Source of the DNA: a virus
Taxonomy: Duplodnaviria > Heunggongvirae > Uroviricota > Caudoviricetes
Reading direction: 5' to 3' (one strand)
IMG/VR virus record: IMGVR_UViG_2693429677_000015
Length of the DNA: 36,705 nucleotides
Under the pieces are notes generated by a model. That model was not told the DNA's origin. It was given only the letters and a program-made list of their open reading frames with translations, and searched no databases. Of this stretch, positions 2,161 through 2,493 are shown piece by piece. Within the stretch, counting starts at the first letter, position 1, and every line of letters starts with the position of its first letter. Position numbers and translations under genes: made by a program.

Positions 2161-2493
2161 TTATCCCTTTGATTTAGTAAGAAATACTAAATTTCCGATA
2201 ATAATATTGCCAATAACCCATAAGCCTCCAATAGCAATTAAACCTAAGCCCGTACCAATAACTGTACCGGCTTTTTCGGCATCGGATGTGGCGTTGTTTA
2301 TTATTTCACCCACCTCTCTTAGCCCAACACAAATCGTGTAGATTATAAAAATATTAAATAATATAAAAAAACACTTAATGAGTTCTCCAAAAAATGAACG
2401 TTTAAGTTTTTTCAGTTGTTTGCCGCAAGCAGGGCAAGACAATACTGAATCGATCACCTCTTTCTGGCATTCAGGACATTTGATTAATGCCAT
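2161..2493 (-). CDS. Small zinc-ribbon membrane protein (CPEC..CPAC followed by two predicted TM helices)
   Basis: ATG at 2493 preceded by AAGGAGG (8-nt spacing); the 2538 start of the ORF track is TTG; N-terminal C-x2-C-x(10)-C-x2-C, then hydrophobic segments FFILFNIFIIYTICVGL and GLGLIAIGGLWVIGNIIIGNLVFL. Confidence 0.5.
   Translation of the reverse strand: MALIKCPECQKEVIDSVLSCPACGKQLKKLKRSFFGELIKCFFILFNIFIIYTICVGLREVGEIINNATSDAEKAGTVIGTGLGLIAIGGLWVIGNIIIGNLVFLTKSKG

Follow-up and report, generated by a model that had tools for sequence, protein, structure and literature searches.

The window, by which we mean the whole 36,705-nt stretch of DNA analysed here, carries on its minus strand a reading frame (product beginning MALIKCPECQKEVIDSVLSCPACGKQ; 110-codon sequence MALIKCPECQKEVIDSVLSCPACGKQLKKLKRSFFGELIKCFFILFNIFIIYTICVGLREVGEIINNATSDAEKAGTVIGTGLGLIAIGGLWVIGNIIIGNLVFLTKSKG) that stands between a hok gene and a gene of VasI/TagO-like character (Table 1). 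The frame is called below the zinc-ribbon gene, and the VasI/TagO-like gene, which starts 4 nt after its stop codon, is called its partner. The surrounding islet (about 1000-2600) is AT-rich, with a GC content of 0.33-0.39 against about 0.50-0.55 in the flanks, as an earlier note made from the letters had remarked. That note had also proposed that the encoded protein, being next to a type I toxin, may act as an accessory of the latter, a proposal to which we return together with the hok evidence.

Table 1. Positions of the features discussed in the text
Feature	Position	Strand	Remarks
Attachment core, 20 bp, AAAATCCTTGTTGATGAAAA	1098..1117		original 5′ end of pdxB, GTG before it
Two hairpins past the cassette	1200..1254		terminator scan and direct reading
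Partner gene, 3′ part (198-aa ORF)	1264..1860	minus	third CYD motif and IalB-fold beta-sandwich (VasI domain); out of frame with the 5′ part
Partner gene, 5′ part (93-aa ORF)	1875..2156	minus	Sec signal peptide and two CxxxxxxxRLxCYD motifs; VasI/TagO-like
T7 tract	1899..1905	minus	T8 or TTTCTTTT in intact orthologues; 1-nt deletion splits the 297-aa partner gene
Zinc-ribbon gene	2161..2493	minus	ATG start, TAA stop; 110-aa predicted inner-membrane protein
Shine-Dalgarno site of the zinc-ribbon gene, AAAGGAGGCG	2500..2509	minus	direct reading; conserved in the alignment of related phages
Palindrome TTTGT(T/A)ACAAA	2529..2539		in the predicted 5′ leader; conserved in a hok-less Klebsiella phage
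Extended -10 promoter, TGaTAAAAT (predicted)	2548..2556	minus	conserved in E. coli, Citrobacter and Klebsiella (as CGATAAAAT) phages
hok fbi element, AAGGCAUCC	2606..2614	minus	pairs with the hok mRNA 5′ end, GGGUGCCUU
hok 3′ GC hairpin, GACGGGGGAGTAATCCCCCGTC	2639..2662	minus	no U-run on the hok strand
hok, 46 aa	2671..2811	minus	Pfam HOK_GEF, 30.2 bits; 177 nt upstream of the zinc-ribbon gene, same strand
hok leader/sok region	2800..2994	minus	Rfam sok, 46.4 bits, below the gathering score of 59

The product is laid out as an N-terminal C4 zinc ribbon (residues 3-27), made of two CxxC knuckles (CPEC at 6-9 and CPAC at 20-23), followed by a DrpB-like two-helix hairpin (residues ~28-110). Pfam Zn_Ribbon_1 (PF13240) matches it with an E-value of 2.3e-5 and 24.5 bits, the gathering cut-off being 25 bits, and the same model is found (E<=0.01) in 32 of 42 family members. 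All four ribbon cysteines are conserved to at least 90% in 42 homologues of 28-65% identity. In the AF2 model (pLDDT 72) short ribbon strands precede two long helices, 34-67 and 71-106, that form the hairpin. With basic residues on both ends of the hairpin in the sequence, a topology-level model would place both termini inside (N-in/C-in), with the ribbon in the cytoplasm and a periplasmic loop of ~20 residues. Domain search, conservation and the AF2 model therefore agree with the zinc ribbon and two hydrophobic helices that the earlier note had read from this frame, and the strong Shine-Dalgarno site it had pointed out is borne out as AAGGAGG at 2508..2502, whose GGAGG is separated from the ATG by 8 nt.

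In RefSeq the 110-aa product is named 'zinc-ribbon domain-containing protein', and it matches PHROG 6586, whose function is unannotated, over its full length (HMM E 4.9e-32, residues 1-110 against 1-129 of 129). The gene is carried by 237 of 5426 complete E. coli genomes and is present in 20 phage records, and an exhaustive HMM search matched 267 clusters (50% identity) to the family at E<1e-10. Outside the lineage of the window, dN/dS between its orthologues is 0.03-0.2. Because of this wide spread over E. coli, phages and clusters, along with the low dN/dS, the frame is confirmed as a real gene and no chance ORF.

E. coli RIVM_C019217 matches positions 1200-3100 of the window at 99.7% identity, and there the order is flk, four small genes, a complete P2-family prophage ending in cox, a repressor-like gene and int, and finally pdxB. 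A second copy of AAAATCCTTGTTGATGAAAA lies directly ahead of pdxB, beyond int, in this near-identical genome. Since the attachment core is thus a direct repeat standing on both sides, the four small genes belong to the prophage, which is of the P2 family and has pdxB, at its 5′ end, as integration site; they lie at the prophage end opposite int. The order gpD, ogr, (hok), the 333-nt zinc-ribbon gene, a 4-nt gap, the VasI-like gene and attR is found in phages 500465-2, PhiR44_2, Xuanwuvirus P884B11, Citrobacter Shae_phiSM and Klebsiella 3LV2017. The cassette occurs in about 4% of complete E. coli genomes (the partner being intact in ~190 of the E. coli genomes) and in Klebsiella, Citrobacter and Enterobacter. 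A search of PADLOC-DB with all four cassette proteins gave no defence-system match; a Cas2 hit at E 0.021 was spurious, and nothing was returned for the partner or hok.

Relation of the membrane hairpin to DrpB

Alignment of the family brings out conserved positions before and in TM1, namely the four cysteines, R32-x3-G36 and, where TM1 begins, (K)W-x-F43-x2-F-N47. The loop has the motif (S/T)DAE(K/R)AG, and TM2 has W92-x2-G95-x4-G100 with T106-(R/K)-P-K at its end. Elsewhere the 2-TM domain is found alone, with different N-termini, or fused to periplasmic domains. The NCBIfam DrpB model (NF038392, positions 2-82 of 86) weakly matches residues 28-107 of the protein, with an E-value of 0.025 and 14.9 bits, which misses the equivalog cut-off of 50 bits; also, a precomputed Pfam DrpB match to the Klebsiella orthologue is flagged weak. 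On aligning the family profile with a purpose-built DrpB alignment in hhalign, we obtained 95.8% and E 7.5e-9 over 79 columns, which is the whole hairpin, while a profile comparison of DrpB and the zinc-ribbon protein as single sequences gave 71.6%. Identity between the two is remote (~15-18%), and the invariant T106 aligns with T89 of DrpB in the profile comparison. By these matches the 2-TM part is homologous to DrpB/YedR. Because the NCBIfam score falls well short of the equivalog threshold and a zinc ribbon is additional, the protein is to be regarded, as far as profile comparison goes, as one with a DrpB-like domain and not as a DrpB orthologue.

DrpB in multicopy activates the Rcs phosphorelay independently of RcsF in a manner that needs the periplasmic domain of RcsC, its T89A substitution abolishes the activation, and it also induces Psp; these effects were seen in multicopy and their physiological meaning is unclear (PMC11709261). 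The topology of DrpB and the length of its periplasmic loop have been described (PMC7648144) and are matched by our model of the zinc-ribbon protein. DrpB itself has been reported only from some Enterobacteriaceae (PMC7648144).

The VasI/TagO-like partner

Intact orthologues of the partner are 297 aa long, are encoded by a gene of 894-897 nt and have a signal peptide. Pfam VasI (PF11319) matches the 198-aa ORF of the window with 58.1 bits, the cut-off being 26.5, and at 43.9 bits the TIGR03360 equivalog cut-off of 124.2 bits is missed. RefSeq names the partner 'TagO', and it corresponds to PHROG 1848 (E 5e-37), for which function is again unannotated. A DNA-level search of E. coli for T6SS-cluster tagO copies returned prophage copies only. 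The VasI-like neighbour has been noted before, once, as cargo of PhiSM (PMC6456863), and the zinc-ribbon gene was so far annotated merely as a zinc-ribbon protein or as PHROG 6586. Our literature search found nothing on the zinc-ribbon gene, on the pairing, on the fusions or on the homology to DrpB.

A genome scan for homologues with a 14-sequence alignment gave 74 species-level loci, in about 10 of which a VasI-like neighbour or fusion is present. The 2-TM hairpin, a third TM helix and a VasI domain are joined in one chain in P0167, P0153, P0173 and the Micavibrio locus L079. In distant taxa VasI-like genes adjoin 2-TM genes, abutting them on the same strand at two loci (L075 and L076), lying 37 nt upstream on the same strand at another (L049) and ~900 nt upstream on the opposite strand at a fourth (L028). 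Because of the fusion proteins and of this adjacency in distant taxa, a functional link between the zinc-ribbon and VasI-like proteins is suggested, and the conserved partner of the zinc-ribbon gene appears to be the VasI/TagO-like gene downstream and not hok. The pairing is not universal, as a recognisable periplasmic partner stands beside the 2-TM gene at only ~40% of the 74 loci. The commonest neighbour (16-20 of the 74 loci) is an upstream protein of ~235 aa with a zinc ribbon of its own, one TM helix and a periplasmic beta-rich domain (...ETNTDG...WNN...PEFLF), and this domain is also fused to the 2-TM domain in P0128. Other neighbours are repressors, integrases and plain housekeeping genes, and outside the enterobacterial P2-like prophages the contexts are heterogeneous. 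The theme that recurs across these loci is a DrpB-like hairpin together with an exported or membrane-anchored periplasmic domain.

Control signals and the hok/sok neighbour

About 90 nt ahead of the ATG, comprising the extended -10 element, the palindrome and the Shine-Dalgarno site, remain conserved in the Klebsiella phage that lacks hok as well. A promoter scan of phage 500465-2 reports TTATCA-16-TAAAAT with an upstream TG. In the window the spacing to the -35 element is disturbed by a loss of 3 nt (TTGACA at 2579..2574 is 20 nt away), which leaves the extended -10 alone, and with the altered spacing the scan of the window itself did not flag this promoter. The zinc-ribbon gene is therefore predicted to have its own sigma-70 promoter of the extended -10 type, and independent expression would be its ancestral arrangement. 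The leader palindrome could be an operator or an RNA element. A search for the Ogr-type motif TGT-N12-ACA gave no match in 2494-2700 on either strand, and in the whole window 8 matches against 9.4 expected. Past the cassette, ACACAAAGCCCG-loop-CGGGCTTTGTGT (1200-1229) forms a palindrome whose GC stem runs into TTTGTGTT on either strand, and this element, beside the att site, probably terminates transcription in both directions.

The hok gene is preceded by a promoter-like site, TTGAAA-18-TAGAAT, at 2994..2965. Around the locus the Rfam models matched the hok leader, below the gathering score of the sok model, and otherwise gave chance matches only. The earlier note had stated that no terminator separates the hok 3′ stem-loop from the zinc-ribbon gene, and our scan of 2494-2670 on the minus strand likewise gave no terminator-like site. 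On folding the hok mRNA from its predicted start at 2958, we found that the 5′ end closes on 2614..2606, which is before the leader of the zinc-ribbon gene. Such tac-fbi end pairing is typical of hok mRNAs, as in the R1 system, where the terminator of hok is located after fbi. In related phages a segment of 84 nt comes after the fbi element and folds to a 15-bp hairpin with A5 before the stem and U5 after it, and by position and fold this hairpin is the probable hok terminator. The terminator scan left it unflagged in a related phage, as its U-run falls inside the extended stem. The segment is kept in at least 125 E. coli genomes. In the window, as in the GTEN_23 lineage, precisely this segment is missing, the loss having taken place between T(A/G)TCTCAC copies that form an imperfect repeat (junction 2605/2606). 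Since the terminator-like hairpin is missing because of a deletion specific to this lineage, the terminator-less state between hok and the zinc-ribbon gene seems to be secondary. As there is no terminator, read-through from hok is physically possible in the window, as a secondary state.

Occurrence and composition set hok further apart. The zinc-ribbon and VasI-like pair comes directly after ogr without hok in Klebsiella phage 3LV2017, in Klebsiella prophages and in E. coli MS 57-2, and of the 74 species-level loci only 1 has a hok within 6 kb of the homologue (absent in 73). The hok block (~2598-2970), in turn, occurs without the pair in the P2-like phages P88 and Chuche and in Stx phages, with the block boundary at fbi, and its GC content is 0.53 against 0.35 for the gene pair. 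By these patterns hok/sok is a separately mobile unit. The earlier note had named homologues in mainly unrelated contexts, with an independent promoter, as the outcome that would speak against a link to hok, and this is largely what we see, in that the promoter element is conserved and the neighbours are heterogeneous.

Interpretation and comparison with known systems

The explanation that we favour, and hold to be reasonably probable, is that P2-family (Peduoviridae) prophages of Enterobacteriaceae carry at their ogr/attR end a cargo (moron) cassette of two genes, the first of which is the zinc-ribbon gene. The most likely role of this cassette would be that of an envelope-directed module of lysogenic conversion. 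The role of a hok/sok accessory (in immunity, membrane stress or abortive infection), co-transcribed with hok, is very unlikely. It would account for the common strand, the distance of 177 nt and the terminator-less interval in the window, and the hok-zinc-ribbon arrangement does recur in E. coli and Citrobacter P2-like phages. However, each unit is found without the other, with the boundary at fbi and a different GC content, the folded hok mRNA closes at 2606 ahead of the leader, and relatives have both the post-fbi hairpin and a separate promoter; we therefore do not uphold the type I toxin link of the earlier note, for which the VasI-like gene is substituted as partner. A lytic-cycle function, such as a holin/antiholin-like or injection-related membrane protein that is expressed late, could be imagined for a small two-TM protein encoded beside tail and late-control genes, but it is hardly credible, as the prophage encodes a holin and an endolysin of its own at another place, the Ogr-type late promoter motif is missing ahead of the gene, homologues occur outside phages too, and the post-ogr position at the att end, the AT-richness and the patchiness (absence from P88) are those of cargo rather than of a core gene. 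It has also to be considered that the pair is an accessory of the host T6SS, modulating its firing or protecting against it. This is suggested by the Pfam VasI score of the partner, by VCA0118 (VasI), which is dispensable for Hcp secretion and affects T6SS-dependent killing (PMC3166118), and by PhiSM ORF1, given in a table entry as cargo of the T6SS VasI family (PMC6456863). But the partner does not reach the TIGR03360 cut-off, there is no T6SS core gene in the window or in the examined prophage contexts (all of them P2-like prophage ends), many lysogens need not have a T6SS, and even for T6SS loci the function of TagO/VasI is given as unknown (PMC13584744). We rate this explanation as quite improbable.

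More weight, though still short of an even chance, is due to the possibility that the zinc-ribbon gene of the window is a functionless remnant, the ORF being merely still stop-free in an inactivated cassette. The partner is frameshifted here, 3 nt of the promoter spacer and 84 nt upstream have been lost, and dN/dS of the zinc-ribbon gene against its closest relatives is 0.37-0.61 in this lineage (0.03-0.2 elsewhere), which means relaxed constraint, with the substitutions W42C, M50I, D96N, I101N and P108S at otherwise conserved positions. Among E. coli genomes the split annotation of the partner is confined to a group of at least 95% identity, ~45 genomes including 9 plasmid copies, and on ETEC plasmids the same degraded cassette lies as a fragment beside a truncated gpD gene. 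Because of the frameshift, the upstream deletion, the raised dN/dS and the conserved-site substitutions, the cassette in the window is probably decaying, and this decay belongs to the favoured explanation as well. On the other side, the ORF is intact with a perfect Shine-Dalgarno site, the same allele is found in ~45 genomes, and the zinc-binding cysteines, F43, N47, W92, G95, G100 and T106 are kept. The T7 tract, being in frame a slippery heptamer U_UUU_UUU, could also allow a -1 slip that restores some full-length partner, and DrpB-like proteins occur without a partner too. With the partner broken this copy may be inactive.

For the cargo cassette that we favour, the following course may be proposed. 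The zinc-ribbon protein would be translationally linked, through the 4-nt gap, to a Sec-exported protein of the VasI/TagO family, in which three helical CYD motifs of disulphide type would accompany the IalB-fold beta-sandwich. In the E. coli/Citrobacter lineage hok/sok would have been acquired independently as an addiction unit and inserted between ogr and the cassette. The membrane hairpin might dock on envelope machinery of the inner membrane as DrpB does, meaning divisome proteins and, at high abundance, activation of RcsC-dependent Rcs and of Psp, and the zinc-ribbon protein might anchor the periplasmic IalB-fold partner or signal from it. The lysogen would end up with an altered envelope, for instance through a primed stress response or through effects on capsule or division site, and this could protect it against superinfection or contact-dependent attack. 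A more far-reaching version, which we offer as a rather improbable conjecture, is that the two proteins form a trans-envelope pair that switches on Rcs and/or Psp through the RcsC periplasmic route of DrpB, or retunes the divisome, so that the lysogen gains capsule-type protection against superinfecting phages and T6SS; TagO/VasI would then work through a DrpB-like partner, and DrpB would itself belong to a large mobile family, as a domesticated member without the ribbon.

At the level of the family the finding is moderately interesting, and the locus in the window is ordinary to degenerate. A false lead is removed, in that the zinc-ribbon gene is no helper of hok, and a conserved two-gene cargo cassette is defined at the post-ogr att-end site of P2-like prophages. 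Homology, fusion and adjacency tie together three proteins of obscure mechanism, namely DrpB (divisome, RcsF-independent activator of Rcs), TagO/VasI (T6SS accessory) and IalB, and the link could help to explain what DrpB-like and TagO-like proteins do.

Compared with DrpB (YedR; PF28000, NF038392), the zinc-ribbon protein has a 2-TM hairpin of similar length with the same predicted N-in/C-in topology and a periplasmic loop of ~20 residues, and the two have in common R-x-x-x-G-K-x-x-x-W-x-F ahead of TM1 and T-R/K-P-K/R behind TM2. It differs from DrpB in the extra C4 ribbon at the N-terminus, in being borne by phages and islands whereas DrpB sits at the chromosomal drpB locus, in being paired or fused with periplasmic domains, and in belonging to a far broader family (alpha-, beta- and gamma-proteobacteria and beyond). 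The partner shares with TagO/VasI (VCA0118; PF11319, TIGR03360) the VasI domain, the N-terminal C...RLxCYD, the export and the IalB-like beta-sandwich. Unlike TagO/VasI, it is prophage-encoded and lies outside T6SS clusters, has three CYD repeats in 297 aa against ~210-230, remains below the TIGR03360 cut-off and is coupled to a DrpB-like membrane protein. The neighbouring locus resembles the hok/sok type I toxin-antitoxin systems (parB of R1 and chromosomal hok loci) in its Hok ORF, its leader matching Rfam sok, the tac-fbi pairing and the 3′ hairpin, but the zinc-ribbon gene is no part of such a system, the association being lineage-specific and the unit boundaries separate. With the morons of P2-like phages (old, tin, fun(Z) and the hotspot defence systems) the cassette shares its AT-rich and patchy cargo character, a promoter and terminator of its own and a fixed site in the phage. 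It differs from them in its membrane and periplasmic protein content, in matching no PADLOC model and in its position after ogr at the att end, which is a third cargo site of P2-like prophages.

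Insertion at pdxB and atypical genes

A P2-family prophage, inserted in pdxB at its 5′ end, makes up the whole window. The att core repeat near one end of the window recurs past the other in NZ_CP087377.1, and the start of pdxB is replaced by the phage-side att copy; the RefSeq annotation of this gene begins at a later ATG. Also, between ogr and the replication gene lie genes for ParM, a plasmid partition/stability protein and an Rrf2-type regulator, a set that is atypical of P2-like genomes and suggests that the prophage is able to persist extrachromosomally.

Features located in this part of the analysis
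Feature	Position	Strand	Remark
att core, 20-bp repeat AAAATCCTTGTTGATGAAAA	window 1098-1117; copy past window end in NZ_CP087377.1
VasI-like gene frameshift site, CGT TTT TTT CTC (T7)	window 1899-1905	minus	U_UUU_UUU slippery heptamer, zero frame
Junction of 84-nt deletion	window 2605/2606		flanked by imperfect direct repeats T(A/G)TCTCAC
Rfam 'sok' match	window 2800-2958	hok-sense	46.4 bits (gathering score 59)
GC-rich hairpin (example)	window 3075-3092		between hok promoter and first tail gene
ParM, partition/stability protein, Rrf2-type regulator	L003 25866-27817 (window ~25856-27807)		between ogr and replication gene

Lesions downstream of hok and in the VasI-like gene

The deletion downstream of the type I toxin gene hok took out a 15-bp A5/U5 hairpin, which in related phages stands after the hok fbi element (an mRNA 3′ element). 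At the other end of hok, the Rfam 'sok' match stays below its gathering score, and this model apparently depicts the hok leader and not the antisense RNA itself. In the VasI-like gene the seven U's form a slippery heptamer in the zero frame and, judging from the sequence, full-length protein would come from a -1 slip or from RNA polymerase adding one U; the T7 allele is common to about 45 genomes.

Alternative partners of the cassette proteins

In Photorhabdus, Xenorhabdus, Agrobacterium, Brucella/Ochrobactrum and others (loci L019-L022, L031, L034, L036, L038-L040, L044, L053, L057, L058, L064 and L065, at about 5250-5990), a second partner family recurs, with its gene directly upstream of the one for the Zn-ribbon/DrpB-like protein. 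Each of these proteins, about 235 aa long, combines a zinc ribbon with one TM helix and with a periplasmic domain that bears the motifs ETNTDG...WNN...PEFLF, and against Pfam nothing other than the ribbon matched. The fusion protein P0128 joins this periplasmic domain to the 2-TM domain in one chain. A P2-like prophage of Salmonella enterica (L085/L086, 4142-6046) carries ogr and hok, then a convergent pair encoding a 222-aa multi-TM protein and a 250-aa VasI-like protein, so that a different membrane partner substitutes here for the Zn-ribbon protein.

The block on other contigs, plasmids and phage backbones

A 4.2-kb contig (L008, DEQA01000038.1) of the MAG 'Planococcaceae bacterium UBA3378' bears hok together with the Zn-ribbon and VasI-like genes at enterobacterial identity (82% aa); the contig probably derives from an enterobacterial phage and was mis-binned into this Firmicute MAG. 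In its degraded form, as in the window, the block recurs on ETEC plasmids roughly 142-146 kb in size, adjoining a group II intron (L088, NZ_CP025911.1, plasmid p204446_146, 5992-8455), with truncated gpD, ogr, hok, the Zn-ribbon gene and a frameshifted VasI-like gene. Complete E. coli genomes include nine plasmid copies. This fragment has apparently outlasted its phage, and perhaps hok lies behind its survival.

It may be noted that the ~670 nt upstream of hok, up to the first tail gene (region window ~2965-3640), hold GC-rich hairpins and are without a convincing ORF. The match to the usual P2-like phages ends at ~2970, within the hok promoter, of which the -10 is kept while the -35 is different. 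Since similarity ends there and ogr of this phage, unlike in the usual P2-like phages, adjoins the portal gene, the hok-ZnR-VasI block has been transferred among different phage backbones.
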